This document shows, in pieces, positions 31,614-54,583 of a stretch of 64,000 nt of DNA. The notes beneath the pieces are model-generated. The model worked only from the letters and a program-made list of their open reading frames with translations. It was not told where the DNA came from and searched no databases. The DNA comes from Escherichia coli (GTDB lineage: Bacteria > Pseudomonadota > Gammaproteobacteria > Enterobacterales > Enterobacteriaceae): NCBI RefSeq assembly GCF_024223415.1, contig NZ_CP100500.1, one strand, 5' to 3'. Numbering within the stretch: the stretch's first letter is position 1; each line of letters starts with the position of its first letter. The translations under genes were made by a program, and so were the position numbers.

Positions 31614-31677
31614 TTCTCCCCCTCATGTGATTCAGGCAGTTTACTCACCCCTTACAGGCCTCCTGCCATGCCCGGTG

Positions 31678-31695
31678 TTGTCGGCATTCGCTTAC
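31678..31695. promoter_or_regulatory. candidate Ogr-dependent late promoter element (TGT-N12-ACA) in the P/O divergent region
   Basis: TGTcggcattcgcttACA matches the dyad consensus described for P2/P4 late promoters, between the divergent P and O starts. Confidence 0.5.
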
Positions 31696-31767
31696 AACAA
31701 ACGCACTTTGTCTGTCCCTGCCCCGTTTTGCCATCATGAGACAAACGATCATCACGAGGGCCCGACA

Positions 31768-36721: not shown

Positions 36722-37172
36722 ATCCCTGAGCACACACATGAGTACAGCGTGCCGGTGGTGCAGGGCCAACCCGGAAAAGTTCACCGTGTTCATTGAACGT
36801 GGCGGGATAGAGACCACCGGCGAGACGCCGACGTTCGTGTACAACTACCGGCTGGTGATGTTCGTGATGGACTACACGGGCGATCTGGACAACCTGACGC
36901 TTCCACTGATTGTCTGGCTGGCAGAGAACCAGCCGCAGTTGCTGCTTAATCCTGAGCGCAACAACGATATTCAGTTCACGGCGGCCATTAACGACGACGA
37001 CAGCGCGGACGTGCTGTTTGAGCTGCCGTTACGTGAACGCGTGCGCGTCACCCGCAGGGATGACGGCACCCTCATGACAGAACATCTACCGGAGCCGAAA
37101 TCACGCATCCCGCAGGACGGCGACTGGTCACACATTCTGGAGGATGTGACGTGGAACATTGTCACCGGATAA
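36708..37172 (+). CDS. P2 gpR-like tail completion protein
   Basis: 154 aa from MLKSKSL...; the central region (VMDYTGDLDNLTLPLIVWLAENQPQLL) parallels P2 R. Confidence 0.8.
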   Translation: MLKSKSLSTHMSTACRWCRANPEKFTVFIERGGIETTGETPTFVYNYRLVMFVMDYTGDLDNLTLPLIVWLAENQPQLLLNPERNNDIQFTAAINDDDSADVLFELPLRERVRVTRRDDGTLMTEHLPEPKSRIPQDGDWSHILEDVTWNIVTG

Positions 37173-37187
37173 CACGCGGAGAATGTT

Positions 37188-37844
37188 ATGGGGAAACTGA
37201 GATACCGTAACCTCGTTCCCGCTGAAGGAATGAGTAACATGTTTGTCAATATCCGGCTGGCAACCAGCCCGCAGGCAGTGAAGCGCATTGCCGCGCATGT
37301 GGGTAAGGAGCTGCGGCGCGTGAACCAGAGCCGGATGCGCGCCCAGAAAGCGCCGGACGGTTCGGTGTGGACACGCCGTAAACGCCGTATATCACGCCTT
37401 CAGGAGCGCATCAGCTTTATCTGGCAAAACCAGAACCGCACCCTGAAAAACTGGCATCACGGTTCAGGAAAATACGGCCAGACCATCACCGGCTGGGATG
37501 AAGACCGGAGCGGCATACGTACCTTTTACCGGAGTGATATCCTCCGTTTCCTTGAAATCAGGACACGCCGCATCAACCGTGACACCACAAAAACGGTGCC
37601 GATGTTTGCGAAGCTGCGCACGGCCCGTTATCTGAAAGTGAAGGCGGACGCATCAGGTGTGACGGTGGGCTACAGCGGCGTGGCGGCACGCATTGCCCGC
37701 GTTCACCAGTTCGGGGAGCGCGACCGGGTGGCCGCAGGGATGTATACGGATTATCCGGCCCGTGAACTTCTTGGAATAACACCGGCAGATGAACGACTTA
37801 TTCAGCGTATCATTATGGACAATATCGCGAGGGCTGTGGCATGA
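37188..37844 (+). CDS. P2 gpS-like tail completion / virion morphogenesis protein
   Basis: 218 aa; MRAQKAPDGSVW... and ...IARVHQFGERDRV... blocks match gpS-family motifs, with an internal insertion relative to P2 S. Confidence 0.75.
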   Translation: MGKLRYRNLVPAEGMSNMFVNIRLATSPQAVKRIAAHVGKELRRVNQSRMRAQKAPDGSVWTRRKRRISRLQERISFIWQNQNRTLKNWHHGSGKYGQTITGWDEDRSGIRTFYRSDILRFLEIRTRRINRDTTKTVPMFAKLRTARYLKVKADASGVTVGYSGVAARIARVHQFGERDRVAAGMYTDYPARELLGITPADERLIQRIIMDNIARAVA

Positions 37845-39669: not shown

Positions 39670-40225
39670 CAGGAAAAAAACAGACAGCGCACAGCACAGT
39701 ACATCACTGCTTCCACCGTCCGCAGGGCCATTCATGCGCGCCACAGAGGCGACAGGAGTACGCATCAGTACCATACCGGTGGACGCCGACACCCTGTGGT
39801 CGCCGGACCGCTGCCCTGCTCACCTCCTGCCCTACCTTGCATGGGCATGTTCCGTTGACAGCTGGGACCGCAACTGGCCGGAAGAGACCAGGCGACAGGT
39901 GATTCGGGACGCATGGATGATACATCGCCACAAAGGGACCATCAGTGCACTCCGCCGCATCGTTGAACCACTGGGCTACCTCATCCGTGTATCAGAATGG
40001 TGGGAGTTTGACGGCTCGCCCGGGACCTTCACCATTGAGATTGGCACACTTGAAACCGGAGTAAGTGAAGAGCTGCATGAAGAAATGGAGCGTCTGATTG
40101 CCGATGCGCGCCCCGTCAGCCGCCACCTCGTGGGGCTTAGTATCATCCAGGAAATACACGGTGCCATTTACGCCGCTGCCGCAGGTTACGACGGCGACAT
40201 CATCACCATTTACCCGGAAGACTGA
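39662..40225 (+). CDS. P2 gpI-like baseplate protein
   Basis: 187 aa from an ATG following ggagg; overlaps the J end. Confidence 0.8.
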   Translation: MSDRKKTDSAQHSTSLLPPSAGPFMRATEATGVRISTIPVDADTLWSPDRCPAHLLPYLAWACSVDSWDRNWPEETRRQVIRDAWMIHRHKGTISALRRIVEPLGYLIRVSEWWEFDGSPGTFTIEIGTLETGVSEELHEEMERLIADARPVSRHLVGLSIIQEIHGAIYAAAAGYDGDIITIYPED

Positions 40226-40228
40226 ACC

Positions 40229-42463
40229 ATGAGCACGAGAAAATTCAGAACCCTTATCACCGACATCGGGCTGGCAAAGCTGGCCGCAACAACGGCGCCT
40301 GGCGGTAGACCTGTACGCCTTACGCACATGGCTGTAGGGGACGGCAATGGAGAGCTTCGTCAGCCGCAGAAAAACCAGACATCGCTTTACAATGAGGTTT
40401 GGCGCCAGTCTGTCAACCGCGTCTTCACCGACCCGGAGAACCCGAACCGCCTCATCGCCGAACTGGTCATTCCTCCTGAAACCGGCGGATTCTGGGTGCG
40501 TGAAATTGGTGTGTTTGATGATACAGGTACAATGATTGCAGTAGGAAATACCGCTGAAAGTTACAAGCCCACCAGAGAGGAAGGTTCAGGGCGGGCGCAG
40601 ATATTCCGTGCAGTAATCACCGTCACCTCCGACGCCGTGGTGGAACTGGTCATGGACACAACAACAATTCTGCCGACCACGGACTACATTGATGAGAAAA
40701 TAGCGGAACACGCACGTTCCCGTAACCACCCTGACGCGACACTGACAGAAAAAGGATTCACCCAACTGAGCAGCGCCACAAACAGCACCTCTGAAACACT
40801 GGCCGCCACACCGAAGGCCGTCAAGGCTGCATATGACCTTGCAGCCGGTAAAGCACCCGCCAGCCACACCCACCCGTGGAATCAGATAACAGGTGTGCCA
40901 TCAGCCTCGCTGACGGCAAAAGGCACCGTACAGCTGAGCAGTGCCACAAACAGTGAGTCAGAGACTGAGGCCGCCACCCCCAAAGCGGTTAAAGCCTTAC
41001 ACGATATGGTGACGAGCAAGTATACAGGACAGGATGCAACCACCGGACGCAAAGGCATCGTACAGCTGAGCAGCGCCACAAACAGCAATTCCGAAACACT
41101 GGCGGCCACACCGAAGGCAGTAAGTGATGCACTGAGCATGGCGTTCGTGAAGCCAACAACATCCCTGGGGGAAACAGACCTGAACACTCTGGGGAGTAAG
41201 GAAGACGCGGGAGATTATTACCAGCAGAGTGACTCAGGTGCGAGAACAGACAGAAACTATCCTGTAGAGAAGGCAGGAGAGTTACGCATCCGTGTTGGTG
41301 CATGGGGATTCTGCCAGCATGAATACACGAGCTGGGATCCGCCACGAAAATTTATCAGGACAGTTACCGGAAACTTTAACGGTAACGGCCCATGGTCAGA
41401 GTGGGTGGAGGTGACAAACACAGATGCAACAACTGGACGCAAAGGCATCGTACAGCTGAGCAGCGATACAAACAGCAATTCCGAAACGCTGGCGGCCACA
41501 CCAAGAGCCGTCAAGGCTGCATATGACCTTGCAGCCGGTAAAGCACCCGCCAGCCACACCCACCCGTGGAATCAGATAACAGGTGTGCCATCAGCCTCGC
41601 TGACGGCAAAAGGCACCGTACAGCTGAGCAGTGCCACAAACAGTGAGTCAGAGACTGAGGCCGCCACCCCCAAAGCGGTTAAAGCCTTACACGATATGGT
41701 GACGAGCAAGTATACAGGACAGGATGCAACCACCGGACGCAAAGGCATCGTACAGCTAAGCAGCGCCACAAACAGCAATTCCGAAACGCTGGCGGCCACA
41801 CCAAAAGCTGTTAAAGCTGCGTATGACCTTGCCAACAGCAAAGCCTCGGCAGCCCACACTCATCGCTGGGCTCAGATCACAGACGCCCCTGTTTTTTCGT
41901 CTGTTGCCCGCGTCATCATGGGTAAACAAAGCATAAAAGATATTCTTGATTACCTTGGTTTAGGAGAAGGCTCGACGCTGCCAGTTGGCGTACCCGTTCC
42001 GTGGCCTTCGTCAAGACCACCTGAGGGGTGGTTACAGTGCAACGGTGCCGCATTCACGCGTACAAAATACCCAAAACTGGCGGTGGCCTACCCTGACCTC
42101 AGGCTACCAGATTTGCGCGGGGAATTTATTCGTGGATGGGATGACCTGCGAATGATTGACAGGGGACGCTTATTGTTATCCACACAGGAAGCAACATATA
42201 TTTGTACCGCCATACAGGCGTACCACGGCGTAGCGGGAGGTGCAGATATTCAGGCAGGGATTTCATTTGCATCACATGATAACGACATCATAAACATAAC
42301 CCCTGATCAACCCAGAACCGGTAACGGCATCCTGTACGGCACAAAACCAGTTGACAGATGGGCAATAGCCAGAGCCGGTAAGCTGGTGAGTAATGAAAAA
42401 GACAGATGGATAGCGATCAGACCGCGCAATATCGCTTTTAATTATATTGTGAGGGCAGTTTAA
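40229..42463 (+). CDS. tail fiber protein (P2 gpH-like) with internal repeat modules
   Basis: 744 aa; N-terminus MSTRKFRTLITDIGLAKLAATTAPGGRPVRLTHMAVGDGNGE... is like P2 H. Six copies of the tail-fibre repeat motif (QLSSATNS..ETLAATPKAVKA) and a perfect 251-bp internal duplication. Confidence 0.88.
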   Translation: MSTRKFRTLITDIGLAKLAATTAPGGRPVRLTHMAVGDGNGELRQPQKNQTSLYNEVWRQSVNRVFTDPENPNRLIAELVIPPETGGFWVREIGVFDDTGTMIAVGNTAESYKPTREEGSGRAQIFRAVITVTSDAVVELVMDTTTILPTTDYIDEKIAEHARSRNHPDATLTEKGFTQLSSATNSTSETLAATPKAVKAAYDLAAGKAPASHTHPWNQITGVPSASLTAKGTVQLSSATNSESETEAATPKAVKALHDMVTSKYTGQDATTGRKGIVQLSSATNSNSETLAATPKAVSDALSMAFVKPTTSLGETDLNTLGSKEDAGDYYQQSDSGARTDRNYPVEKAGELRIRVGAWGFCQHEYTSWDPPRKFIRTVTGNFNGNGPWSEWVEVTNTDATTGRKGIVQLSSDTNSNSETLAATPRAVKAAYDLAAGKAPASHTHPWNQITGVPSASLTAKGTVQLSSATNSESETEAATPKAVKALHDMVTSKYTGQDATTGRKGIVQLSSATNSNSETLAATPKAVKAAYDLANSKASAAHTHRWAQITDAPVFSSVARVIMGKQSIKDILDYLGLGEGSTLPVGVPVPWPSSRPPEGWLQCNGAAFTRTKYPKLAVAYPDLRLPDLRGEFIRGWDDLRMIDRGRLLLSTQEATYICTAIQAYHGVAGGADIQAGISFASHDNDIINITPDQPRTGNGILYGTKPVDRWAIARAGKLVSNEKDRWIAIRPRNIAFNYIVRAV

Positions 42464-43074
42464 TGAGTAACACTGCAGTTCTGGATGAAAACGGTATCGC
42501 CACTTTCGCAGGCGATATCACTGTATATCACTATGATGAGGAAACCCGGGAATACACCTCATCCTCTGTGGAGTATCTGGCCCTGGGGGTGGGTACCCCG
42601 GCACATTCATGCGCCGATGCCCCGCCAGAGGCAATGCCGGGTTACGTGATTTGCCGGACGTCCACGCTGGACGGGTGGGAGTATGTCCCCGATCATCGTG
42701 GAGAGACGGTATACAGCACAGAGAACGGTAATCCGGTCCAGATTACCCAACCAGGTGACTACCCGGAAGGGACAACGACAAAACAGCCTGCCACACCATG
42801 GGATACCTGGAACGGTGAGGCGTGGGTAACCGATACAGAACGGCAGCAAGCCGAAGAGCTGGAGGTTGCCAGACAGCAACGCAAGGAACGGGTGGATCAG
42901 GCGATGAAGTCCATCGACCTCATCAACCTTAAGTTGCGGGCAGGTCGCAGTCTGACACCAGAAGAAACGGCAAAACTGAATGCCGTGCTGGATTATATCG
43001 ACGAGCTGAACGCACTGGATATCAGCACGGAGCCTGAAATAAGCTGGCCGGAAACACCACCAGAAATGGAATGA
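42463..43074 (+). CDS. tail fiber assembly chaperone (P2 gpG-like)
   Basis: 203 aa; start overlaps the H stop; MSNTAVLDENGIATFAGDITVYHYDEETREY... is typical of tail fibre assembly proteins. Confidence 0.85.
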   Translation: MSNTAVLDENGIATFAGDITVYHYDEETREYTSSSVEYLALGVGTPAHSCADAPPEAMPGYVICRTSTLDGWEYVPDHRGETVYSTENGNPVQITQPGDYPEGTTTKQPATPWDTWNGEAWVTDTERQQAEELEVARQQRKERVDQAMKSIDLINLKLRAGRSLTPEETAKLNAVLDYIDELNALDISTEPEISWPETPPEME

Positions 43075-43116
43075 GCGGGGAAAAGGAACGGGCATTCATA
43101 AATAATTCATCATGCA

Positions 43117-43136
43117 GGTGCCGCAAGAATGCGGCA
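43117..43136. terminator. bidirectional terminator hairpin between convergent G and U
   Basis: gtgccgca-agaa-tgcggcac perfect stem in the 70-bp gap between the G stop and the U stop. Confidence 0.5.
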
Positions 43137-43144
43137 CATTACCT

Positions 43145-43633
43145 TCACATCAGATCATTTACGCCGCTTACTGTGGTATTCCAGACCGAACTTAACTTCC
43201 CTTTCATTCCCGAAAGCATATCAGACACCGGTGACGAGGCCATACTCTCCCGCAAATCCTCATCACAGCGTTCCAGACTGACAGTGAACTCAATTTTTTT
43301 GGCCTTACCGTGGCGGTCAAGTTCGCTTCGCGTTGTGCGGACAGCCGTTATCACATACATGCCGTATATCTGCCCCACACCGTCAATCAGCGGCCATGGG
43401 CGACCAGTGTAAGCCTGCGTCGTTAAAAGGCTGAGGGAAACCTCACCGCCGGTAATTTCGGGATAAAGCACACCGGACAACGTGATCTGGTCGTCACCCG
43501 CCCCGATATACTGCCAGCTGGCCGAACGATTGATGCGTTCATTTTTAACGTGGCGCCAGGTTTTATTATGTTGCAGTTGTTGATGAGGCAGCGTACGCAA
43601 CTCAAAAACAAACATGCCGTAAATCATCATCAT
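43145..43633 (-). CDS. P2 gpU-like tail protein
   Basis: 162 aa (MMMIYGMFVFELRTLPHQQLQHNKTWRH...); last gene of the leftward sheath-tube-tape-measure block. Confidence 0.8.
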   Translation of the reverse strand: MMMIYGMFVFELRTLPHQQLQHNKTWRHVKNERINRSASWQYIGAGDDQITLSGVLYPEITGGEVSLSLLTTQAYTGRPWPLIDGVGQIYGMYVITAVRTTRSELDRHGKAKKIEFTVSLERCDEDLRESMASSPVSDMLSGMKGKLSSVWNTTVSGVNDLM

Positions 43634-43644
43634 GCGAGGTACTC

Positions 43645-46600
43645 CTAATCTCTGTCACGGAAACTACCGACTGTCTGGCGGATACGGCGTTCCATTTCCG
43701 CACGGACGGCATCACCCACCATTTTTGCCAGTTCGCGCGGGTTTTGCGTGTGAACATCATGCAGGTGAATATGCAGTTCGCCAGTTAATCCCCATGGTGC
43801 CGCCTCACTCTGGCGCGGTCGGGGCGATGCGGGGGATATGGGCTGGCGCACAGCCTCAACCACCGGACGGGATGTTGCCGCCATCACTGGTGTCATTAGC
43901 GGGGAGAACGTCGGCATGACATCGTGAGTCATAACCGGTTTGATCACCGGCGGAACCACTGGCGTAATATTACCGGACAGTACCGGACGGACGACCGGAG
44001 GAATAACCGGCACATTATTCACGGACACCACCGGCTTCACGACCGGCGACACGTTCGCCGTGGTGGATATCAGCGGCGAAACACTGACAGGCGGTGGCGC
44101 TGGCAGCGGTGGCAACGAAGGCACACTGACCGACGGCACCTGCGGCAGTCTGACAGGTGGCTCACTGACACTACCCGGTAACAGGGAAGCTGCGCGGTTA
44201 AAGCGTTCCTCCTTCCACTCACCACGAACGGCCAGCGCTTCCGGCAGGTTTTTAAAGATAATATCGCCGGGACCAGCGCGTTTTTTCGCCTGTTTCGCCT
44301 CATCCAGCAGACCACCGGTGTTATCGACGATTTTGTTCAGGCGGCGCATAGTGCCGGTATTCTCCCCCGTCAGGGGTGGTTGCCCCCCTTTGGGTTTTTC
44401 GCCGTATTTTTTATCCTCGTCCTTTTTCGGCGGATTAATGACGTTAACATCCGCCAGAAGCATGGCAGCTTTCTCGTTCAGCAACTCCTTCTGTTTTAGT
44501 TCTTCCGCTTTTTTCCGGGCGCGCTCAACCGCTGACGGAATCAGCCCGAGTTTTTCCAGCACCCGGGTTAATGAGTCAATCAGCAGCGTAACCGGACCGG
44601 TCACCAGATTGCTGATAAACTCCCCGACCTTCTGCCCGAACGTCCGCCCGGCTTCCGTGCACTTGTCCAGCTCATCCTTTGTTGTGCTTACCGGCGCGAA
44701 CAAATCCACGAACCACTGCCACACACGCCCGATTGTCTGCCCGACATACTCAAACAATGGTCCCAGTGGTGCCACAGCCTCGCGCAGTGGCGTAAGCCCC
44801 TGCCACAGGCCGGACAAGAACCCGCCCACGACAGCCTTCAGCTGGTCCCAGTGCCGCCAGATAAGCACTGCCGCACCGACCAGTGTCGCCACCACAAGGC
44901 CCACCGGACTTAACAGAAAACCCAGCGCCCCGCCAAGTGCGCCCACCGCACCACTCACCATCCCCCACAGTGCGGGCAGACCTGACAGTCTGAGCGCCAG
45001 TATTCCGATACCGCGCCCCAGTGAAATCAGTGCGCCGCCAGGTGAAGTGAACGCAGCCAGCAGACCACCACGCAGCGCGCCAAGTCCCGCCTGCACACCA
45101 CGAAGCCGCCCCGCAACTACGCCCAGCAGTGCAGCAAACCGTCCGGCACCGGAGGTGATACCGACAAACAGCACGCGCCAGCCACCGATACCGCCCAGCG
45201 GACCACCGAGTACGCCGCGCAGCTGCGTCAGTAACGGCAGCGCACGACCGAGGCCGGATGTGCCGGTCAGCAGGGCAAACCCAAGACGCAGTTTTGCCAG
45301 CGGCCCCATCAACACACCAGTGGCAAGTGACAGCGCCCCCATGGCCGCAACCGCAGCCAGCAGTACACCACCGGCAATCAGCAGTTGTTTTGTCAGTTCA
45401 GGGTGCGCCTGAGCCAGCGCGGTGACTTTCGCAATAACCCGGGTGAACGACTGCGTGACAGAACGCAGCGGCCCGTCAACGAGGTCAGCGATACGGATAC
45501 GCAGTCCTTCCCATGCGCTGTTCAGTGATTTCAGGTCACCGTCCAGGTTATCAACCATAACACGGGCAGTCTGATTAAGTTCCCCGGTGGCCAGTTCAAT
45601 CTCCTGCGTAAGACGGGGAAGATTATTTTCCCCCGCCGCAGTGACAAGATTCATCAGGGAAACATAGGACTCCTGCCCGGCAATAGCCCTGAAAAAGGAG
45701 ACCTGCGCGGCATTACCGTATTTTCGGGTGGCCTGGTACAGCTCATTCAGGATATTTTCCATCCGGCGCATGTTCCCGTAAGCATCCTGCGTCTCCACGC
45801 CAAGCTCTTTCAGTGCCATTGCAGCGGCCTTCGGCGGATCAACCAGACGTGACAGACTGGCACGCAGCGCCGTACCTGCATCACTTCCACGGATCCCCAC
45901 ACTGCCAAGGACACCCGTCATGGCTGCCGCCTGTTCAAGGGACAGGCCAAGTGAAGCTGCAACCGGCCCCGTGTACTTCATGGTTTCACCCAGCGAACGG
46001 AGATCCGTATTGGTTCGTGTGAAGGTGGCGGCCAGCGTGTCACCCACGCGATCCATCTGGTCAGCGGACAGACCAAACTGTGTGAGGATATTCGAACTGA
46101 TATCGGCAGTCTGTCCCAGGTCCATCCCTGCAGCCATTGCCAGATCAAGCACGCCGGGTAGCGCCGCCTGTATGGCCTGTGGTGTGAAGCTGGCCATGGC
46201 AAGGAACGCCTGACCGCTGGCAGCATCACCGGCGGTAAACTGCGTTTCAGAGCCCAGCTTAATGGCCTGTTCGCGCAGCGCCTTAAACTGCGGACTGTTT
46301 TTGTCAATACGGGTCAGCGCCTGGACGCGCGACATCTCCTTACCAAAACTGACCGCCGGTTGCAGGAAACGTCCGGCCGCATAGCCGCCTGCCGCCGCCG
46401 TACCAACCGCCGTAAGTCCGACCGTTTTAAGTTTTCCCGCCGTCTCCTGAGCACGGGAATATTGCTGGCGTGCCTGCGTGACACGTGCCAGCGCCTGCCG
46501 TTCGCGTTCCAGCTGGTCGTTGTATTGCTGTGTTCGCCGTATGGCCTGTTGAATGGTGTTGTCACTGCCGGAAAGCGCAATACCGTGGCGCCGCAGCTCA

Positions 46601-46956
46601 CCACCCAGTTCGCGCATTCGCTGAACTTCACGCGCACGGACCTCATTGAGACGCTCAAGTTTGAGGCTCAAATCGTTCATCAGCTTTTTCTGTTTGTCAG
46701 ACAGCACGGTTCCGGCGCGCTGAATTTGCTGAAGTGCGCTTAACTGGCGTTGCGCCCTGACAATGCCGTTTCCGGCCTTGTTTGCAGCCTCGCGGGCGCG
46801 ATCAAATGAACGGGCGTGGCGTTCCAGGTTTTTGATCGCACCCTGCGTTCTCTGTATGGAGTCGCCAAGCTGGCCCATCATGCGACGGGCGTTTTCGGTG
46901 GGACGGGTCAGCCTGTCAACAGCGCTGAAGGCGACCCGTATATCAAGCGTTTTCAT
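43645..46956 (-). CDS. tail tape measure protein (P2 gpT-like)
   Basis: ORF 43645-46992; ATG at 46956 (MKTLDIRVAF...) overlaps the predicted E' stop, giving ~1103 aa. Long helical N-terminus and Gly/Ala-rich membrane-like core typical of tape measure proteins. Confidence 0.85.
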   Translation of the reverse strand: MKTLDIRVAFSAVDRLTRPTENARRMMGQLGDSIQRTQGAIKNLERHARSFDRAREAANKAGNGIVRAQRQLSALQQIQRAGTVLSDKQKKLMNDLSLKLERLNEVRAREVQRMRELGGELRRHGIALSGSDNTIQQAIRRTQQYNDQLERERQALARVTQARQQYSRAQETAGKLKTVGLTAVGTAAAGGYAAGRFLQPAVSFGKEMSRVQALTRIDKNSPQFKALREQAIKLGSETQFTAGDAASGQAFLAMASFTPQAIQAALPGVLDLAMAAGMDLGQTADISSNILTQFGLSADQMDRVGDTLAATFTRTNTDLRSLGETMKYTGPVAASLGLSLEQAAAMTGVLGSVGIRGSDAGTALRASLSRLVDPPKAAAMALKELGVETQDAYGNMRRMENILNELYQATRKYGNAAQVSFFRAIAGQESYVSLMNLVTAAGENNLPRLTQEIELATGELNQTARVMVDNLDGDLKSLNSAWEGLRIRIADLVDGPLRSVTQSFTRVIAKVTALAQAHPELTKQLLIAGGVLLAAVAAMGALSLATGVLMGPLAKLRLGFALLTGTSGLGRALPLLTQLRGVLGGPLGGIGGWRVLFVGITSGAGRFAALLGVVAGRLRGVQAGLGALRGGLLAAFTSPGGALISLGRGIGILALRLSGLPALWGMVSGAVGALGGALGFLLSPVGLVVATLVGAAVLIWRHWDQLKAVVGGFLSGLWQGLTPLREAVAPLGPLFEYVGQTIGRVWQWFVDLFAPVSTTKDELDKCTEAGRTFGQKVGEFISNLVTGPVTLLIDSLTRVLEKLGLIPSAVERARKKAEELKQKELLNEKAAMLLADVNVINPPKKDEDKKYGEKPKGGQPPLTGENTGTMRRLNKIVDNTGGLLDEAKQAKKRAGPGDIIFKNLPEALAVRGEWKEERFNRAASLLPGSVSEPPVRLPQVPSVSVPSLPPLPAPPPVSVSPLISTTANVSPVVKPVVSVNNVPVIPPVVRPVLSGNITPVVPPVIKPVMTHDVMPTFSPLMTPVMAATSRPVVEAVRQPISPASPRPRQSEAAPWGLTGELHIHLHDVHTQNPRELAKMVGDAVRAEMERRIRQTVGSFRDRD

Positions 46957-47469
46957 GCTCTGCGTTCCCGCTGCGAAGGGCCGCCCGCTCACGCCAGGCG
47001 ACCACCTCGCCGGGATCCATCAGGAAGATTTCAGCGGGAGACCAGTTGAAAATAACGGCGATATCCGCCACAAAGTCTTCAATGTGCTCAAAGGGCACGA
47101 CGGTTATCAGCCTGCCGTCGCCGCCCCGCTCTTCCCGCCAGAGTCCTGACCGGCCAAAAAATTAACCGCCACCCCGCACAGCTGAATAAAATCAGCGGAC
47201 CCCATGCGCTTAAGCAGAACCTCGTCCAGTCGCGGCGAAGTGACGCGCGGGAGTAACTCAAACATCGCGTCCGTTTTCATGTTCAGCACGTCAAGCAGTG
47301 ACAGCCCGCGCAGTGAACCGGCCTGCTGTACAGCAGGCGTGATTTCCACATACGTGATTTTTTTGTTACCGAGCACAAGGGGCGTTTTCAGCGTCACGCC
47401 GCGCTCACTGGTCACGTCCGCCGCATCAGCACCGTCAGTAACAGGGGCAACAACCGGATTTTCTTTCAT
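46952..47469 (-). CDS. tail assembly chaperone E (47107-47469) and its -1 frameshift extension E+E' (to 46952)
   Basis: 120-aa E ORF ends at 47107. A TTTTTTG slippery heptamer (minus strand, 47155-47161) lies near its 3' end; after a -1 shift the frame runs to a TGA at 46952-46954 that overlaps the T start codon. Confidence 0.7.
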
Positions 47470-47519
47470 GCATAAAACCTCAAATCAGGGGGCGACGCCG
47501 CGCGCCGCCGTGGGAAACA

Positions 47520-48038
47520 TTAACCACCAAGACCAATCGCCGAGCGCACGCGGTCCGGGAAGACGTTTTTGCCGTCCTTGCGTTCGATGTGGTTCAGTAA
47601 ATCAATCTCCAGCACCGGACGGTCGTTAATGCTGAGTTTGTAGTAGGTACTCCTGACCGCATAGGTGTGAGACGTGACCTCACCCTGTTTTGCCTCCCCC
47701 GTATCAATTTCCGTCACGCGGCCGCGAAGCTCAATTTCATACAGGTCGCTCTGCTCTTCATCGTTGTAGTACTCACCGACAAAGCGCAGCAGCGTACCGT
47801 CGATCGTGCCGCCGTACTTAAGGAACAGTTCGCGGGTCGGCCCGCCCATGGTGAAACTCGCATCCAGCGCGCCGTCATCCAGACCAAGGTCGATATTCAC
47901 CGCGCCGGCCATACCACCACCGCGATAGGCTTCCGTTTTACGGGTCAGTTTGGGGGGCGTGAAGCCGGTCACCCTGCCAATCTGGTTCACCCCGTCAGTA
48001 AACAGCGTGAACACCCTGAGATTTTTTGGTACGGCCAT
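47520..48038 (-). CDS. P2 gpFII-like tail tube protein
   Basis: 172 aa (MAVPKNLRVFTLFTDGVNQIGRVTGFTPPKLTRKTEAYRGGGM...). Confidence 0.88.
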   Translation of the reverse strand: MAVPKNLRVFTLFTDGVNQIGRVTGFTPPKLTRKTEAYRGGGMAGAVNIDLGLDDGALDASFTMGGPTRELFLKYGGTIDGTLLRFVGEYYNDEEQSDLYEIELRGRVTEIDTGEAKQGEVTSHTYAVRSTYYKLSINDRPVLEIDLLNHIERKDGKNVFPDRVRSAIGLGG

Positions 48039-49321
48039 TAAGCACCTCCAAGCGTCGCAAATGCAGGACCAAAGAATTCATCAGTAAACGTCTGGTAAAG
48101 TTCCATATCCTCAAGCGGCGGAACGGGCGTGTACTTGTAGCGGATACGCACGCGTCCCTGACGAAGTTCCGTGGTGCTGTTATCCACCACGTCATACCAG
48201 CACTCCGCACCAATGAGACGTCCTGACGTAACCAGCGCATCCAGTTTTGCGCGAATTGCGCTTAACACGTCTTTCACATTAGCAGGGGTCAGCGGGGCAT
48301 CAATCGTTTCAAACTGCGCTTCCGCAATGGAATCAGCCAGCACCTGAGCGGTTCGCGTGTACACCTCAAAGATATACGCCTTCGTTTCCGGCGTACGGTT
48401 GCCCCAGAAGCGGAAACCGTTACGGCAAATGATGGTAGTGATTTCCTTGTTGTTGAGATTGTTGGCATCGCTGTCTTCGGACTGAAGGGACCAGAACACC
48501 GGGCTGGAAATACCCAGCACATTTGTTACCGGCACGTTGGACAGCGATTTATGCCAGCCCTGTTCGTGGTCAATACGTGCACGTAAACCGCAGGCGTACG
48601 CCGCAGCCGGGAAGACCTCATTAGCGCCGGATTTCGGGTTATAGGCGATGAAGTCAGGCCAGAGCAGCATAAGTTCGCGCTCGTTAAATCTGGCGCGGTA
48701 GCTGATTGCATCAGCGGGCTTCTTGCAGTTGTGACAGCCCGCGTAGACAAATGCGCGAAGTTTTTCTGCAATTACACACAGGGATTTTGTGACAGCTTCA
48801 GTATCCAGTCCGGGAGCTGCGATGATGCGCGGACGGTAACCGATGGCATCATCCTGTTCAGCTATCAGAAGTGCATACATACCGGTATAATTACCGTCGC
48901 CATCCGTGCCACCAATGACATACTGGTCCTGCGTTTTGTGTGGGTATACAGGATGTGCATCTTCAGACTCATCAATACCAAAAAATGCCCTGTCTTCAGG
49001 ATCCAGATGACCGAATGATGTAACTCCTGTATCCGGGGCGCCCTGAGAACTGGTATCAGGAACGCGCACCACAATCACCTTCGTGCTCACCTGGTCGGCG
49101 ACAGCCTTAAGCGATTTGTAAAGCGTCCCCTTTGTGCCGGCCTTACCCAGCACATCACTGACGCGGGTCAGCAGTGTGGGTTTGTTCAGCGGGAACAGAG
49201 TTTCATCCGCGTCATCTGCCGTAGCCACAATACCAATAACACTGGAATCCACATCATTAATGGCGGTGGCAAGGCCGGTACTTTCCCTTACGCGCGCACC
49301 ATGAAAGCGTGTTTCACTCAT
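48038..49321 (-). CDS. P2 gpFI-like tail sheath protein
   Basis: ORF 48038-49468; start placed at MSETRFHGARV... (49321). Blocks ...FPLNKPTLLT...GTKGTLYKSL..., ...LRARIDHEQGWHKSLSNV..., ...RNGFRFWGNRT..., ...YTRTAQV..., ...YTPVPPLE... parallel P2 FI. Confidence 0.88.
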   Translation of the reverse strand: MSETRFHGARVRESTGLATAINDVDSSVIGIVATADDADETLFPLNKPTLLTRVSDVLGKAGTKGTLYKSLKAVADQVSTKVIVVRVPDTSSQGAPDTGVTSFGHLDPEDRAFFGIDESEDAHPVYPHKTQDQYVIGGTDGDGNYTGMYALLIAEQDDAIGYRPRIIAAPGLDTEAVTKSLCVIAEKLRAFVYAGCHNCKKPADAISYRARFNERELMLLWPDFIAYNPKSGANEVFPAAAYACGLRARIDHEQGWHKSLSNVPVTNVLGISSPVFWSLQSEDSDANNLNNKEITTIICRNGFRFWGNRTPETKAYIFEVYTRTAQVLADSIAEAQFETIDAPLTPANVKDVLSAIRAKLDALVTSGRLIGAECWYDVVDNSTTELRQGRVRIRYKYTPVPPLEDMELYQTFTDEFFGPAFATLGGA

Positions 49322-49397
49322 ATGTTTCACCCTTGTCTGGCTGGTTGATTTTGCGTAATCATTACCCACACACGCGGTAATCTCACCCCTTTGATGT

Positions 49398-49415
49398 TGT
49401 CTCCTGACAGCGACA
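49398..49415. promoter_or_regulatory. candidate Ogr-dependent late promoter dyad (TGT-N12-ACA) in the divergent FI / D intergenic region
   Basis: TGTctcctgacagcgACA, nested in a longer palindrome (tgttgtc...gacaaca); lies ~75-80 bp from both the FI and D start codons. Confidence 0.5.
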
Positions 49416-49482
49416 ACAAAACAGCCATTCAACGCCGCTGCGGTGCATGAAACCATTACAGAACGCACCAGGAGAGAACACC

Positions 49483-50574
49483 ATGAAAGAGCTGTCAGTT
49501 ACCGTTCCGTCACCGGATATCGACATCACCATCAACAACAACACACTGGCAAACCTCACAGAGCGACTCATGACGCTGACCCTGACGGATAACCGGGCCT
49601 TTGAGGCAGACCGCGTCACCCTCACCCTTGACGATACGGACGGGCAGTTACAGTTGCCACCACGTGGCGCACGCCTGAGAGTGATGATTGGCTGGCGAGG
49701 AGAATCACTGGTTAACAAGGGCACCTACGTCGTTGATGAGGTTGCGTGGGAAGGACCTCCAGATAAACTGATCATCACCGCCAGCAGCGCAGATTTTCGG
49801 GAAGAGTTCAACGTGAGGCGGGAGGTATCCTGGCACGACGTGACCGTAAAACAGGTTGTGTCAGCCATCGCTCACCGCTACGGCCTGAAGACACAGATAA
49901 GCGAAATCCTCATGGATATCGAAATTGACCACGCTGACCAGACCGAAGAGAGCGATATATCCTTCCTGACCCGCATGGCTGAAATGCTGGGTGCGATTGC
50001 CACCGTAAAAAACGGCAGCCTGTTATTCATTCTGCCGGGTGGCGGAACCGGGCCGGACGGAAGAGCCCTGCCTTCGTTCGCCATTACCCGCAGCAGCGGC
50101 GACAGTCACCGCTTTCGCATTGCTGACCGTGATGCGTATACGGGGGTCCGGGCGCACTGGCTCGATCTGAAGTTCGGGCAAAAGAAAAAAGTGAACGTGA
50201 AGCGACGCAGGGAAGCCGGGAAACAGAAACAGGAGAAGAGCAGCAGCCGGGAGGGTGATTACATGGAAGGCGCGGAAGGGAACGTCTACGTTCTGCGCAG
50301 GACTTACCAGAATGAAGAAACCGCACGACGTGCAGCTGCGGCAAAGTGGCAGGAGTTACAGCGGGGAGCAGCGGCATTCTCCATCACTCTGGCACGGGGT
50401 CGTGCCGACCTGTACCCCGAAATGCACGGCAGGGTAACAGGTTTTAAAAGCGAGGTGGACAATCAGGACTGGATTATTGCCAGGGTGGAGCACATCATAG
50501 ATGAAAGCGGCTTCACCACACAACTGGAGCTGGAAGCGAAAATCCCCGAATGGATAGCAGATTCAGGCGGATAA
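49483..50574 (+). CDS. P2 gpD-like tail protein
   Basis: ORF 49447-50574; ATG at 49483 follows aggaga. Blocks LTLTDNRAFEAD, SWHDVTV, HADQTEESDISFLTRMAEMLGAIATVKNGSLLF, ITRSSGDSHRF, GRADLYPE parallel P2 D. Confidence 0.88.
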   Translation: MKELSVTVPSPDIDITINNNTLANLTERLMTLTLTDNRAFEADRVTLTLDDTDGQLQLPPRGARLRVMIGWRGESLVNKGTYVVDEVAWEGPPDKLIITASSADFREEFNVRREVSWHDVTVKQVVSAIAHRYGLKTQISEILMDIEIDHADQTEESDISFLTRMAEMLGAIATVKNGSLLFILPGGGTGPDGRALPSFAITRSSGDSHRFRIADRDAYTGVRAHWLDLKFGQKKKVNVKRRREAGKQKQEKSSSREGDYMEGAEGNVYVLRRTYQNEETARRAAAAKWQELQRGAAAFSITLARGRADLYPEMHGRVTGFKSEVDNQDWIIARVEHIIDESGFTTQLELEAKIPEWIADSGG

Positions 50575-50617
50575 AATTAAAATGAGCCATCTCCACTCAG
50601 CCAGATAAGGAGAAGCC

Positions 50618-50869
50618 ATGTTCCGTTGTCCCCTATGCGGTGCATCCGCACGTATCCGCACCAGTCGCAATGAAAATGATTCAGGCACAGTTCGCCTGAA
50701 GTACTACCAGTGCAATAACCTCGAATGCGGGATCGGCTTTACCACACTGGAGGGTTTTAACAAATTCACATCAAAACGCGCCCCGTCGCCGCAGGGTACA
50801 GAGCGGATACCGTGGGAAGATTTTCCGGGATCTCACAGGGGGAATACTCAGATTAATCTTGATATTTAA
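50618..50869 (+). CDS. ogr: Ogr/Delta-family zinc-finger late gene activator
   Basis: 83 aa; MFRCPLCGASARIRTSRNENDSGTVRLKYYQCNNLECGIGF parallels P2 Ogr (MFHCPLC...YHQCQNVNC...) with a C4 zinc finger (C4, C7, C32, C37). Confidence 0.85.
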   Translation: MFRCPLCGASARIRTSRNENDSGTVRLKYYQCNNLECGIGFTTLEGFNKFTSKRAPSPQGTERIPWEDFPGSHRGNTQINLDI

Positions 50870-51804
50870 GAACAATAATCAGGTTGAGAGGACATCATAA
50901 GGCAAGTAGATTAACGGCAGATACTTTCCCGCAACCACGGGCAAGTATTTAATTATCCATGATGAAATATGACCTAAATTGTTTTTTGCCCGCCGGAAAG
51001 CGGGCATTTTTTTATTCTTTTGTGGTTATGGGGTCATCAGGAACCACGTGCAGATTATATTTTTGTTTTTTTGGCGTTCCTCCGGCAGCAACGAGTTCAT
51101 CAATAAGACACTGACACGCCTGAACATCCCGGGCATGTCTTAGTTTCACCTTTATTGATTTAACCTTATCCTCACCGGAGGAGAAATGCAGTTCAATCTC
51201 AATATCGTTTCTTCGGAACAATCTCATACGCCCCCTGAATATATCAGAAATACTAGTATCGAAAAATGAGAAAACAGTTAGACAGGAGAAACATATTAAC
51301 ACAAATCATTTATACCTATAGATGAAATTATAATTTCATTCATGAATATGATAGATAACTATATTGTGAACAAAATGAAAAATGGCTAAATTAAAAATGG
51401 GCATGGAGGAATGCCCGGTTATCAATATAATGTGACGTAGATCATTGTTTTGCCCGCCGGAGAGCGGGCATTTTTTTTGCGCCTGCCATCGAGGCGCCTT
51501 CCCTGGCGCACACAAAGCAGCCCTGATTTTCCATGAAAACTTCAGGGTTGAGCTGCGGGCACAAAGTGAGTAGATTAGCTACGGGTACCTCCCCCTGACA
51601 ACAGGAAGGGTGTCCATTATCCATGATATACAAACGAAAAGTCTTGTTTTTTGCCCGCCGAAGCGCGGGCATTTTTTTATGCATCAGACAAGATACAGCC
51701 CACCCCAACTGACACCTGAAATATTGCCGCAACAAAAAGAAACAGTTAAATTACGCGCGGGTGCCTTTCGGCTGATGGCCGGAGGGAAAACCTGAAGGCC
51801 GGAT

Positions 51805-52038
51805 GTGGAAAGGCCCCGGAAAACATTTCTGTTTAACCGAGGCCCTAACCGCATTACCTTGACAAGTGAAAGGTTAGCGCCTCTCCGGAAAAGGAGCAAG
51901 TGCTATGTCGCAAAAATCGCTTACGGCCATCACGTTCTGCGTGACGGCAATCCTCATCATCTGGATATTGCACGGTTCGCTGTGCGAAATACGGATGAGC
52001 TTCTGGGGAGCGGAGTTTGCGGCGTTCTTACAATGTAA
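51805..52038 (+). CDS. mok-like overlapping reading frame upstream of and overlapping the hok-like gene
   Basis: 77-aa ORF in a different frame that overlaps the Hok-like ORF, as in hok/mok/sok loci; may be regulatory rather than a stable protein. Confidence 0.35.
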   Translation: MERPRKTFLFNRGPNRITLTSERLAPLRKRSKCYVAKIAYGHHVLRDGNPHHLDIARFAVRNTDELLGSGVCGVLTM

Positions 52039-52045
52039 GAAGTAA
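51905..52045 (+). CDS. Hok/Gef-family type I toxin-like small membrane protein
   Basis: 46 aa, MSQKSLTAITFCVTAILIIWILHGSLCEIRMSFWGAEFAAFLQCKK: N-terminal transmembrane helix plus the conserved SLCEI...AAF... C-terminal pattern of Hok proteins. RBS aaaggag upstream; terminator at ~52140-52170. Confidence 0.7.
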   Translation: MSQKSLTAITFCVTAILIIWILHGSLCEIRMSFWGAEFAAFLQCKK

Positions 52046-53909
52046 GGAAACCGCGACGGGGGAGCAATCCCCCGTCAATCGGTTGCCAGGGTAAGGTCGA
52101 TAAGGCACCCTATCTCACAGACATGAACAAACAAACCCGCAGCATAAAAACTGCGGGTTTTCTTTTTGGTGTCCTCACCGACTTGAAACAGTGATCAGAC
52201 TATAAGACAAAGCCCGCAATGTTGCGGGCTTACTCTACCTCTCGAAAATGTGGTCACTGCGTGGACATACGCTGATACAAATCCTTTATATCAATAAATT
52301 AAATCTTTGTTTTTTTCATCAACAATGATTTAACCTTATCCTCACCGGAGGAGAAATGCAGTTCAATCTCAATATCGTTTCTGTGGAACAGCCTCATAAG
52401 ACAACCTCCTGAATTCATCAGAAACACAGTCAACTGAAAACCAGAAAGCAGACAAACAGTGGACACACATTAATACAAATCATTTATACCTATAGATGAA
52501 ATTGCAGTTTCATCTATAACATGACAGGTAACAATATTGTGAAAAAACTCAAAACTCGTTAGATTAAAGACGGACAGAGCAATGCTACTTTATCAATAAC
52601 ATGTAACCTGTACTTCCTTATTTTGCCCGCCGAAGCACGGGCATTTTTTTTGCGCCTGCCATCGAGGCGCCTTCCCTGGCGCACACAAAGCAGCCCTGAT
52701 TTTCCATGAAAACTTCAGGGTTGAGCCAAAAGCACAAAGACAGTAGATTAACCACGGGTGCCTTCCACCTGACAACAGGAAGGGTGTCCAGTATCAATGA
52801 CAGACAACTCACATTGCTGTTTTGCCCGCCGGAAAGCGGGCATTTTTTTATTCTTTTGTGGTTATTGGGTCATCAGGAACAACATGCAGATTATGCTTTG
52901 ATTTTTTTGGTGTTATTACAGCAGCAACGAGTTTATTAATAAGACACTGACATGCCTGAACATCCCTGACATATCATAATATCACTTTATTTTTTTAGCT
53001 TGTCCTTTCTGGAGCAGAAATATCTCAACATCGTTTCTGTGGAACAACCTCATTTGCCCTTGAATGTATCATAAATATCAGCATCGGAAAACCAACAGCA
53101 ATACAGAAGAAACATGTTAATGCAAATCACTTATACCTATAGATGAAATTACAGTTTTGTTCATAAATATGATAAGTAACTATATTGTGAATAAAATGAA
53201 AACTAGCTAAATTAAACGTGGGCATGGTGGAATGCCTCGTAATCAATAATACATGATCCGTACTTCCTTGTTTTGCCCGCCGGAAAGCGGGCATTTTTTT
53301 GGCGGTTACCATCGCCTCACCTTCCTGGTTCACATGAAGCAACCCTGATTTTCCATGAAAACTTCAGGGTTGAGACAAAAGCACAAAGACAGTAGATTAA
53401 CCACGGGTACCTTCCACCTGACAACAGGAAGGCTGTCCAGTATCAATGACAGACAACTCACATTGCTGTTTTGCCCGCCGGAAAGCGGGCTTTTTTTGGC
53501 AGTTATCATAGCCGCACCTTCCTGGCACATATGAAGCAACCCTGATTTTCCATGAAAACTTCAGGGTTGAGACAAAAGCACAAAAACAGTAGATTAACCA
53601 CGGGTGCCTGCCACCTGACAACAGGAAGGGTGTCCATTATCCATGATATACAAACGAAAAGTCTTGTCTTTTGCCCGCCAAAGCGCGGGCATTTTTTTAT
53701 GCATCAGACAAGATACAGCCCACCCCAACTGACACCTGAAATATTGCCGCAACAAAAAGAAACGGGTGCCTTTCGGCTGATGGCCGGAGGGAAAACCTGA
53801 AGGCCGGATGTGGAAAGGCCCCGGAAAACATCTGTGTTTAACCGAGGCCTGACCCTTCCTACCGTGACAAGTGGAAGGTTAGCGCCTCTTTGTAAAAGGA
53901 GCAAGCGCT

Positions 53910-54050
53910 ATACCGCAAAAAACGATTATTGTTGGCATTTTATGCCTGACAATAACCCTGGTCATCTGGATGGTCCACGATTCGTTATGTGAATTCAGCT
54001 TTGATATCTGGGGAGCGCGTTTTGCGGCGTTCTTGCAGTGTAAACCGTAA
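53910..54050 (+). pseudogene. second Hok-family copy with a non-canonical start (ATA in place of ATG)
   Basis: Same frame and context as the first copy (...ggagcaagcgctATAccg...) giving (I)PQKTIIVGILCLTITLVIWMVHDSLCEFSFDIWGARFAAFLQCKP; ~60% identical to copy 1. The upstream mok-like ORF (53810-53992) is present. Confidence 0.5.
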
Positions 54051-54583
54051 GAAACCGCAGCGGGGGAGAAATTCCCCGCTATCCGGTTGTTGGGGTGGGC
54101 CGATATGGCGCCCTTTCCCTGTAGAGACAAAACAAAAAACCAGATTTGCCCGCCATTGAGAGGGCTTTTTTGTCACCCTCACCAGTGAGGGCATCATCAT
54201 TCAGAGGCGCGTAAGCCACCCGGCGTTAACATCCTGCCTGTCAACCCTGGCCGCAGAGTCTGAACGGCAGGTACCGGAAGGAGTACCAAAAACATCCCTG
54301 ACAAGTTCCGCCACCTTCCCGATATCATCAGGTGTCACATTCCTCACCTCGGCAGTGATCCGTGGCGTACCATCATCGTTAACAAGAGTGGCTTTAAAGC
54401 TGGTGCGAAGGGAAAACAACATCAACATCCCCTCCCTTTGGTTCGTTGCACTGACGGCACGACACCATCAGGAAAAAGAAAAGCCCACAACGTCAGTATT
54501 GTGGACTTTTTTCTTCAAAGATGGACATTATCTGGACACATGAAAATAAAATCCATTTATTTTCATATAGTTAAGTACCATGC

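Follow-up and report, generated by a model that had tools for sequence, protein, structure and literature searches.

The tail genes of a P2-like prophage of Escherichia coli depart in orientation from those of P2. Within the window (the 64,000-nucleotide stretch of E. coli DNA analysed here), the minus strand carries FI, FII, E/E', T and U (49321 down to 43145), and the plus strand carries the flanking genes G, D and ogr. The inverted tail block is a known and fixed gene order, that of phage P88 and its kin, and is not new. The account I consider probable as a whole is that the block was inverted a single time and that this left promoters back to back around one shared Ogr site, so that D, split from the F transcript, is probably still controlled by Ogr.

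Gene Content and Orientation of the Tail Block

The prophage has the complete late set of a P2-like phage (Peduoviridae), H, G, FI, FII, E/E', T, U, D and ogr, with PHROG matches at E-values of 8e-14 to 2e-195 and concordant gene names in PGAP. On the plus strand, H (40229-42463) is followed by G (42463-43074; PHROG 105, E = 2e-87; "tail fiber assembly protein" in PGAP), the tail-fibre assembly gene that ends the rightward V-G unit. The minus-strand block begins with the tail sheath gene FI (48038-49321; PHROG 23, E = 6e-119), whose product is 78% identical to FI of P88 and 43-44% identical to FI of the P2 type. There follow the tail tube gene FII (47520-48038; PHROG 55, E = 1e-54; "phage major tail tube protein" in PGAP), the tail assembly chaperone gene E (47107-47469; PHROG 103, E = 5e-31) and the E' extension (46943-47098), an open frame at -1 relative to E, to which a "GpE family phage tail protein" of PGAP corresponds in position. 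The minus-strand sequence reads as a slippery heptamer, T_TTT_TTG, at 47161 to 47155, suited to a -1 frameshift from E to E+E'. The last two genes are T, the tape-measure gene (open reading frame 43645-46992, with the PGAP start equivalent to 46956; PHROG 28, E = 2e-181), and U, a tail protein gene (43145-43633; PHROG 76, E = 3e-71) whose product is 50% identical to that of P2.

Back on the plus strand, D (49483-50574; PHROG 52, E = 2e-148) belongs to the baseplate hub or late control D family. It has a leader and a ribosome-binding site (AGGAGA) of its own and starts with the ATG at 49483, a start with which PGAP agrees; its N-terminus is intact and collinear with that of P2 D (amino acid 10 to amino acid 14). 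The gene for a zinc-finger late activator of the ogr/delta family (50618-50869, plus strand; PHROG 603; "ogr/Delta-like zinc finger family protein" in PGAP) starts 43 bp downstream of D. Its product is 42% identical to P2 Ogr and retains the Cys motif. A canonical terminator found by a terminator scan (stem plus T7, 50987-51006, plus strand) closes the D-ogr unit.

These gene calls were checked against PGAP's annotation of an E. coli genome of 99.7% identity, which gives the same coding sequences and the same start for D, and they bear out the strand arrangement given in a preliminary description of this DNA. The P2 order given there, FI-FII-E-E'-T-U-D, is also right: the P2 RefSeq record annotates exactly one such F operon, with U and D overlapping. 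That canonical order, with FI through U collinear with D in one operon, is absent from this prophage.

Distribution and Polarity of the Inverted Order

The preliminary description took the block to be either a genuine lineage-specific inversion or an inversion made in assembly. The second reading, by which an assembler flipped a block that in the real genome has the P2 orientation, draws on the expectation set by P2 and has nothing specific in its favour. As far as sequence data go, it is refuted by 27 complete, independently assembled genomes of E. coli that differ in laboratory and host of origin, in which the region from 42400 to 50900 (8.5 kb, both junctions included) aligns as a single collinear piece at 93.6-99.9% identity. 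Related phages have the order as well: FI and D are adjacent and divergent in 48 of 48 phage records with an FI more than 50% or a D more than 60% identical, and FI and D diverge in all 78 IMG/VR loci. Both junctions, moreover, bear conserved signals that are specific to the orientation (the -10 and ribosome-binding site of D, and the hairpin after U), and no inverted repeats that might confuse an assembler flank the block. I put the chance of a misassembly at close to nil and regard the inversion as genuine. Since an entire clade within the P2-like phages of Enterobacterales has the inverted order, a departure from the P2 textbook map at this place should not be read by annotators as evidence of misassembly.

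The phages with divergent FI and D include members of the Peduoviridae genera Xuanwuvirus (P88), Novemvirus (phiT5282H), Reipivirus (ST16-OXA48phi5.4), Reginaelenavirus (3LV2017) and Senquatrovirus (SEN4/5), together with Serratia phage KSP20. All have the order and strands of the window, in that H-G and D-ogr share a strand while U-T-E'-E-FII-FI, which stands between them, occupies the other, and the order is visible in the annotated references P88, phiT5282H, 3LV2017, ST16-OXA48phi5.4 and SEN4. In the window, as in the clade, U converges on the fibre module. Protein identities to the window set these phages apart: for FI they are 51-78% within the inverted clade and at most 45.5% outside it, and for D 60-79% within and at most 52.4% outside. 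A literature search, which did not take in the P2-like prophage survey of Casjens and Grose (2016), found no paper describing the inversion, and the paper on SEN4/5 does not mention it.

The prophage does not fall into any named genus of the inverted clade at the nucleotide level. Megablast of positions 40000-51000 against any phage record covered 12% of the query at 78% identity, and the prophage is likely to be a clade member with a species or genus of its own. It differs from its inverted relatives in the length of the tape measure (1103-1115 amino acids against 935).

In the phages sampled outside the clade the order is that of P2. By annotation, 186 and Fels-2 are collinear, and the paired match coordinates of FI and D show the same for phiE52237, PhiBP82.2, PHL101, STYP1, FoX1 and ECOO78. 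The comparison with P2, 186 and other P2-like genomes proposed in the preliminary description thus upholds the inversion. The idea that the block is also inverted in Fels-2/SopEPhi and in P2-like phages of Burkholderia and Ralstonia was rejected for phiE52237 and PhiBP82.2 (match coordinates) and for Fels-2 (annotation). Given the collinear order of P2, 186, Fels-2 and relatives further removed, the inversion is best read as derived and clade-wide, and the identity bands, taken with the outgroup comparison, suggest that it had a single origin. The reverse polarity, with the antiparallel order ancestral and the collinear order of P2 derived, is very improbable. I found no support for it. Every lineage sampled outside the clade has the genes collinear, whether in phages of Burkholderia, Mannheimia, Xanthomonas, Salmonella or Klebsiella or in more distant myoviruses, and the antiparallel order is limited to Enterobacterales phages within a single tight band of identity.

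The Junction between G and U

As the preliminary description had it, G and U converge on a hairpin. It has an 8-bp stem, GTGCCGCA-AGAA-TGCGGCAC (43118-43137), and lies in a gap of 70 bp. When either strand is folded, the minimum-energy structure contains this hairpin, which is a candidate two-way terminator. Termination at the junction is nevertheless doubtful, since no U tract was found on either side of the hairpin and the terminator scan made no call there. A strong hairpin directly follows U in all relatives examined except the two Reipivirus representatives, where none was seen right after U in Kp4850-1 (folded from a guessed end of U) or in ST16-OXA48phi5.4 (which gave the weakest fold).

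The 70-bp gap holds no open reading frame, hence no cargo of the Z/fun type, again in agreement with the preliminary description. Relatives use the G/U junction for cargo, which may be DUF262 genes, a glycosyltransferase, or an invertase accompanied by alternative fibres. What P88, Shae_phiSM, ST16-OXA48phi5.4 and Chuche carry between G and U (an invertase, an alternative fibre segment or cargo) is missing from the window. The location should help those who hunt for accessory genes in such prophages.

The proximity of invertases raises the question of whether the block from FI to U is a switch, inverted by site-specific recombination as tail-fibre segments are in Mu, P1, Fels-2 and P88. A DNA invertase does adjoin U in P88-type relatives, and a Mu-like crossover site occurs in the fibre gene of 186. 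The window, however, has no invertase gene and, with 70 bp between G and U, no room for one, nor does any inverted repeat pair positions 43075-43144 with 49322-49482. A single orientation is seen in the 27 genomes, the 48 phage records and the 78 viral contigs, and the P2 orientation would place D after U, both without the junction signals that are observed. I therefore regard a switching block as hardly credible and retain a fixed inversion.

The Region between FI and D

FI and D diverge from a gap of 161 bp (taking the ATG of D as 49483), which agrees with the figure of about 160 bp and the single TGT-N12-ACA (49398-49415) of the preliminary description. That motif by itself is not rarer than chance would have it, with 12 instances found in the window against 16.6 expected, so I relied instead on an extended dyad and on conservation between phages. 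The sole dyad of the gap is GTTGTC-N10-GACAAC (49396-49417, centred at 49406.5), a perfect 6+6 palindrome that contains the TGT-N12-ACA and is the predicted Ogr site. With up to one mismatch allowed, the extended dyad occurs within the window only here and in the divergent P/O region of the same prophage (GTTGTC-N10-TACAAC, 31677-31698), where one -10 lies 49.5 bp to each side.

The predicted leftward promoter, P_F, has a -10, AATGAT, at 49358-49363 on the minus strand, with its T6 48.5 bp from the centre of the dyad and a predicted start near 49351. The predicted rightward promoter, P_D, has an extended -10, TGaAACCAT, at 49448-49456 on the plus strand, with its T6 49.5 bp from the centre and a predicted start near 49463. 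A promoter scan of the gap for a sigma-70 consensus promoter found none.

These elements were compared over seven lineages, the five named genera, KSP20 and the window prophage; CP052639, a "plasmid" record with a split FI that looks rearranged, was left out. Half-sites and both -10s are conserved across the seven, with spacing that is nearly unchanged, and the dyad and both -10s of the window are shared by all the inverted-clade phages compared, in gaps between FI and D of about 150-200 bp. The right half of the dyad, ACAACAAAA, is identical in eight of eight aligned loci. The left half is degenerate in several lineages (TCT for TGT in P88, phiT5282H and Kp4850-1), and the perfect palindrome of the window is a point of difference from its relatives; in Kp4860-2 the dyad is maintained through paired changes (GTTGTG/CACAAC). 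The P_F -10 (rAnnAT) retains A2, A5 and T6 in 7/7 lineages; in six of these the offset is identical without gaps, and in Kp4860-2 the hexamer has moved by 1 nt. The P_D -10 (TGnNAyCAT) has TG, A2 and T6 invariant across the alignment, again with an equal offset in six lineages of seven, SEN4 aligning only with a 1-nt shift. Among 45 variants of the P88 type, polymorphism falls in the dyad spacer and the linkers and spares the half-sites and both -10s.

Inversion and the Control of D

The proposal judged probable at the outset runs as follows. In the ancestor of an Enterobacterales P2-like clade (Xuanwuvirus/P88, Novemvirus, Reipivirus, Reginaelenavirus, Senquatrovirus and KSP20, with the E. 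coli prophage of the window a member), FI-FII-E/E'-T-U would have been inverted once together with their late promoter. One breakpoint would have lain between G, or a cargo slot after G, and the activator site of P_F, and the other where U meets D. Since the site bound by Ogr is a palindrome, the inversion would have set it directly upstream of D. The addition of a -10 and a ribosome-binding site for D would then have produced two late promoters dependent on Ogr, P_F reading leftward and P_D rightward, that have one activator site in common, at a distance of about 55-56 bp from either predicted start, as in the P/O design of P2. The hairpin after U would end the shortened F operon and possibly also the converging V-G transcript. 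D was said in the preliminary description to be uncoupled from the F operon. That stands for the transcript; for regulation it probably does not, given a dyad placed symmetrically between the conserved -10s of FI and D.

It may instead be that the inversion is real and D is independent of Ogr, served by a constitutive or early promoter, the dyad acting for FI only. Both start sites are predicted ones and the left half of the dyad is weak in several lineages; P2 ogr, furthermore, has an Ogr-independent promoter, which sets a precedent for mixed control in this part of the genome. I nonetheless think this unlikely. No sigma-70 consensus promoter was found in the FI/D gap, and the conserved TGnNAyCAT lies 49.5 bp from the dyad, the distance at the window's own P_O (the mapped P_O of P2 has 48.5 bp). 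The spacing is free of indels in 6/7 lineages despite diverging surroundings, and D is a late structural protein required together with the products of FI through U.

Returning to the shared Ogr site, I lean towards the view that the inversion made a one-directional Ogr promoter two-directional, giving the prophage a second pair of the P/O type, a positive feedback loop from Ogr through P_D to D-ogr, and perhaps a stand-in for P_V. The last suggestion comes from a search upstream of V, where no activator dyad was found. A candidate P_V dyad inside S (36859-36876) was rejected for its poor right half and the absence of a -10 at the right distance, and another candidate late promoter dyad (TGTTG-N8-CAACA, 27959-27976) because the half-site spacing is 6 bp too short. 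If the model is true, these phages offer a clean natural example of how the symmetry of an activator site lets an inversion split an operon while co-regulation is kept. They would also serve as a natural test case in which an essential gene, D, is cut from a long operon and keeps its late, Ogr-dependent timing.

Comparison with P2, 186 and Invertible Tail Segments

The late promoters of P2 that depend on Ogr/Delta have a TGT-N12-ACA dyad whose centre lies about 55 bp upstream of the start and need Ogr and the alpha subunit of RNA polymerase. Two of them share a site: the P2 record annotates a single "activator binding site; pO, pP promoters" with starts at 3016 and 3127; by my calculation the centre of its TGT-N12-CCA lies midway, 55.5 bp from each of them. 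The record of 186 likewise has a single B site for "activation of pV and p12". Like P_P/P_O of P2 and p12/pV of 186, the FI/D gap has a single dyad midway between back-to-back promoters, here predicted ones. The distance from start to start is about 111-112 bp in both P2 P_P/P_O, where it is mapped, and the FI/D gap, where it is predicted, and the predicted FI and D starts would put the dyad at about -55.5 and -56.5, compared with 55.5 for the mapped P2 pair. Measured from the T6 of the -10 to the centre of the dyad, the distance is 48.5 bp for P2 P_P and P_O and for P_F of the window, and 49.5 bp for P_P, P_O and P_D of the window. The P/O region of the window is built like that of P2. The FI/D pair differs from P2 P_P/P_O in that it would serve FI-U and D, not the packaging and capsid operons, and in having predicted starts; the F promoter of P2 and of 186 is one-directional, unlike the predicted FI/D pair.

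The genes of the P2 F operon (P_F: FI, FII, E, E', T, U and D, with read-through to ogr) are all shared with the window, as are the -1 frameshift from E to E', which the P2 record marks at E, and an activator of the Ogr type. What sets the window apart from P2 is that D is out of the operon and out of its overlap with U, that FI-U runs antiparallel to V-G, and that U is followed by a hairpin, of which P2 has none at that place. The segments flipped by Gin, Cin and Hin (Mu, P1, Fels-2 and P88) likewise present inverted tail genes beside fibre genes, but the block in the window consists of 6.2 kb of essential tail genes, not fibre tips.

Gene order and strands

The earlier gene calls and strands hold against the ORF table and PHROG profile matches of the window. 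Genes H (40229-42463) and G (42463-43074) lie on the plus strand, followed on the minus strand by U (43145-43633), T (43645-46992; PGAP start 46956), E (47107-47469), FII (47520-48038) and FI (48038-49321), and again on the plus strand by D (49483-50574) and ogr (50618-50869). The strand assignments of the preliminary description, with the tail block FI, FII, E/E', T and U opposite to G, D and ogr, are thereby confirmed. Within E there is a slippery T_TTT_TTG (47161->47155), and the -1 frame is open into E' at 46943-47098. The same CDSs are annotated by RefSeq/PGAP on an E. coli chromosome of 99.7% identity, with D starting at the equivalent of 49483. On its right flank the window carries core genes of the E. 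coli chromosome (ftsK, rarA, serS, lolA, trxB), and the prophage is therefore one of E. coli.

At 1103-1115 aa, the tape-measure protein exceeds those of P88 (935 aa) and P2 (815 aa); provided that tail length is proportional to T, a noticeably longer tail is expected. The T ORF is intact in the window (43645-46992), unlike in the 99.7%-identical prophage of E. coli NRZ14408 (NZ_LT599825, 3735-7057), where T is annotated as a pseudogene lacking its C-terminus.

The low-GC stretch from ogr to the chromosome (51000-54100) is built of direct repeats that have diverged (2-4 copies of units of 95-231 nt), in which terminator-like hairpins recur (at 50987-51006 and 51451-51470, among others). A near-identical genome has a Hok/Gef family toxin annotated at the equivalent of 51905-52045, and the prophage end looks like several hok/sok-type modules in tandem.

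The orientation of the tail block

A megablast query spanning both junctions (42400-50900) was covered to at least 80% by 27 complete genomes of E. coli, whose sources include chickens and humans; the matches listed were 93.6-99.9% identical in one or two collinear pieces. I also searched for FI and D by tblastn in 50,697 phage records. In 48 of these FI is 51-78% and D 60-79% identical to the window, separated by a clear gap from all remaining records (FI at most 45.5%, D at most 52.4%). The 48 comprise Xuanwuvirus (P88, P88_4B11, 500465-2, 520873, Shae_phiSM), Novemvirus (phiT5282H), Reipivirus (ST16-OXA48phi5.4, Kp48xx-1 series), Reginaelenavirus (3LV2017, Kp48xx-2/-3 series), Senquatrovirus SEN4/5, Serratia phage KSP20 and unclassified phages. 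In every one (48/48) FI and D are neighbours read from opposite strands, and they diverge in all 78 loci having both genes, among 80 kept from a scan of IMG/VR. No inverted repeats joining the two junctions were found, and the window's block region contains no invertase. The recurrence of the orientation, together with the lack of such repeats and of an invertase, therefore disposes both of an assembly inversion, which the preliminary description had offered as an alternative, and of a programmed invertible segment; its other reading, a genuine lineage-specific inversion, is supported.

Two records are irregular. In the record of Escherichia phage 520873 (CP025923, 5613-8757), deposited as a "phage", FI is split: some 1.9 kb separate residues 1-361 from residues 352-428, so that this essential tail gene seems to carry an insertion, perhaps of an IS. 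CP052639.1, labelled as an unnamed Klebsiella pneumoniae plasmid in the phage collection, has its sheath gene broken into two pseudogene pieces, which flank D-ogr and lie on different strands; it represents a Reginaelenavirus-like phage in rearranged or misassembled form.

In the P2 RefSeq record FI, FII, E, E', T, U and D make up a single F operon, the order given in the preliminary description, and U overlaps D. Phages 186 and Fels-2 are also collinear, as are, by paired FI/D match coordinates, phiE52237, PhiBP82.2, PHL101, STYP1, ST15-OXA48phi14.1, FoX1 and ECOO78. The collinearity of these outgroups argues that the antiparallel order is the derived state, distinguishing a single clade of phages of Enterobacterales, a call based on outgroup comparison and identity bands rather than on a formal tree. 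Since the N-terminus of D is intact (aa 10 aligns with aa 14 of P2 D) and U is full length, one break would fall at the U/D junction. The invertase is flanked by the fibre genes and FI in Fels-2, but by the fibre genes and U in P88, which would place the other break between the fibre/cargo slot and the activator site of P_F, the predicted leftward late promoter of FI.

The G/U junction

Between the stops of G (43074) and U (43145) are 70 bp, containing a hairpin, GTGCCGCA-AGAA-TGCGGCAC (43118-43137), that is present in the minimum-energy fold of either strand. Neither side of it bears a U tract, and a simple terminator scan did not call it; because the U tracts are absent, its efficiency as a candidate terminator after U is uncertain. 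The relatives examined have a strong hairpin directly 3' of the U stop, except for the Reipivirus pair Kp4850-1 (U end estimated) and ST16-OXA48phi5.4 (weak fold, -15.1 kcal/mol). An A run and a T run flank the stem in P88, PhiR44_2 and Chuche, as would be the case in a two-way terminator, and phiT5282H, SEN4 and Kp4860-2 have GC-rich stems of other sequence.

In relatives the G/U gap is a cargo slot, occupied by an invertase with alternative fibre segments (P88, Shae_phiSM), DUF262-domain genes (ST16-OXA48phi5.4) or a glycosyltransferase (Chuche). The slot is empty in PhiR44_2 and in the window, in agreement with the earlier statement that no Z/fun-type cargo separates G from the tail block.

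A predicted activator site shared by FI and D

The ATGs of FI (49321) and D (49483) are 161 bp apart, the latter preceded by AGGAGA. As first described, the gap holds a single TGT-N12-ACA dyad (49398-49415); it lies within a perfect GTTGTC-N10-GACAAC (49396-49417, centre 49406.5). By itself TGT-N12-ACA is not above chance in the window (12 observed, 16.6 expected), but the extended dyad, with at most one mismatch, has a single further copy, at 31677-31698 between the divergent P/O genes. No sigma-70 consensus promoter was found in the FI/D gap.

The P2 record annotates an activator binding site with promoters pO and pP (3057-3087; starts 3016 and 3127), the starts computed to lie 55.5 bp, and the last base of each -10 hexamer (T6) 48.5 bp, from the centre of TGT-N12-CCA on both sides. 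In the window T6 lies 49.5 bp from the dyad centre for P_O (TGcCATCAT, 31729-31737), P_P (TAAACT, 31643->31638) and P_D, the predicted rightward promoter of D (TGaAACCAT, 49448-49456), and 48.5 bp for P_F (AATGAT, 49363->49358). Aligning the FI/D gap of eight phages shows the right half-site and A tract, ACAACAAAA, retained in 8/8 amid otherwise divergent sequence; also kept are T.T on the left and, on both sides, the -10 positions (TG, A2, T6). An ungapped comparison of twelve phages from 7 lineages, anchored on the dyad, places half-sites and -10s at equal offsets, the only shifts being of 1 nt (F-side -10 in Kp4860-2, D-side -10 in SEN4); Kp4860-2 maintains the palindrome by paired changes, GTTGTG...CACAAC. 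The 45 distinct P88-type variants compared are polymorphic in the dyad spacer and the linkers; half-sites, A tract and both -10s are free of variation. The gene 43 bp past D encodes an Ogr homologue that shares 42% identity with P2 Ogr and retains the Cys motif.

From this geometry and conservation, the adjacent Ogr homologue and the lack of a sigma-70 promoter, I infer one Ogr site common to P_F (start ~49351) and P_D (start ~49463), a neat promoter pair predicted from sequence. An in-frame ATG at 49447 is unlikely to start D, because it lies upstream of the predicted transcription start. D-ogr would form a short unit ending at a canonical terminator (50987-51006). The proposal that the inversion uncouples D from the F operon would then be right for the transcript, which D would have left, but probably not for control, D probably remaining a late, Ogr-dependent gene.

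Other dyads and motifs deserve mention. AAGGGGTGAG (minus-strand reading) is shared by the two leftward late promoter regions, P_F (49378-49389) and P_P (31639-31649), at different distances from the dyad, and at P_F it is kept between the window and P88-type phages. A perfect TGTTG-N8-CAACA (27959-27976), between the replication region and the portal gene and directly upstream of an ORF (28027-28740, plus strand), has half-sites like those of Ogr sites at a spacing 6 bp shorter.

Only 15 bp (37172-37188) separate the S stop from the V ATG, and no Ogr-type dyad was found upstream of V in the window prophage. The TGT-N12-ACA at 36859-36876, inside S, was rejected as a P_V dyad, because its right half is poor and a -10 is missing at the proper distance. 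In P2 a separate P_V is served by an activator site of its own. Here, therefore, the O operon may run on through V-G, or P_V may be unrecognisable.

Relation to known phages

A literature search found no paper discussing the inversion, the likeliest source (Casjens & Grose 2016) being outside its reach. Annotated reference genomes from at least five ICTV genera nonetheless already show the antiparallel arrangement. Over the block region megablast against named phages gave 12% coverage at 78% identity: at the nucleotide level the window prophage is no named phage, and it is therefore a new, additional member of this already annotated group. Its predicted regulatory design also has precedent. 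P2 and 186 already have a back-to-back late promoter pair with a single activator site, annotated in 186 as one site for B, its late activator ("activation of pV and p12"), and the arrangement proposed between FI and D would copy the known P/O architecture of P2.
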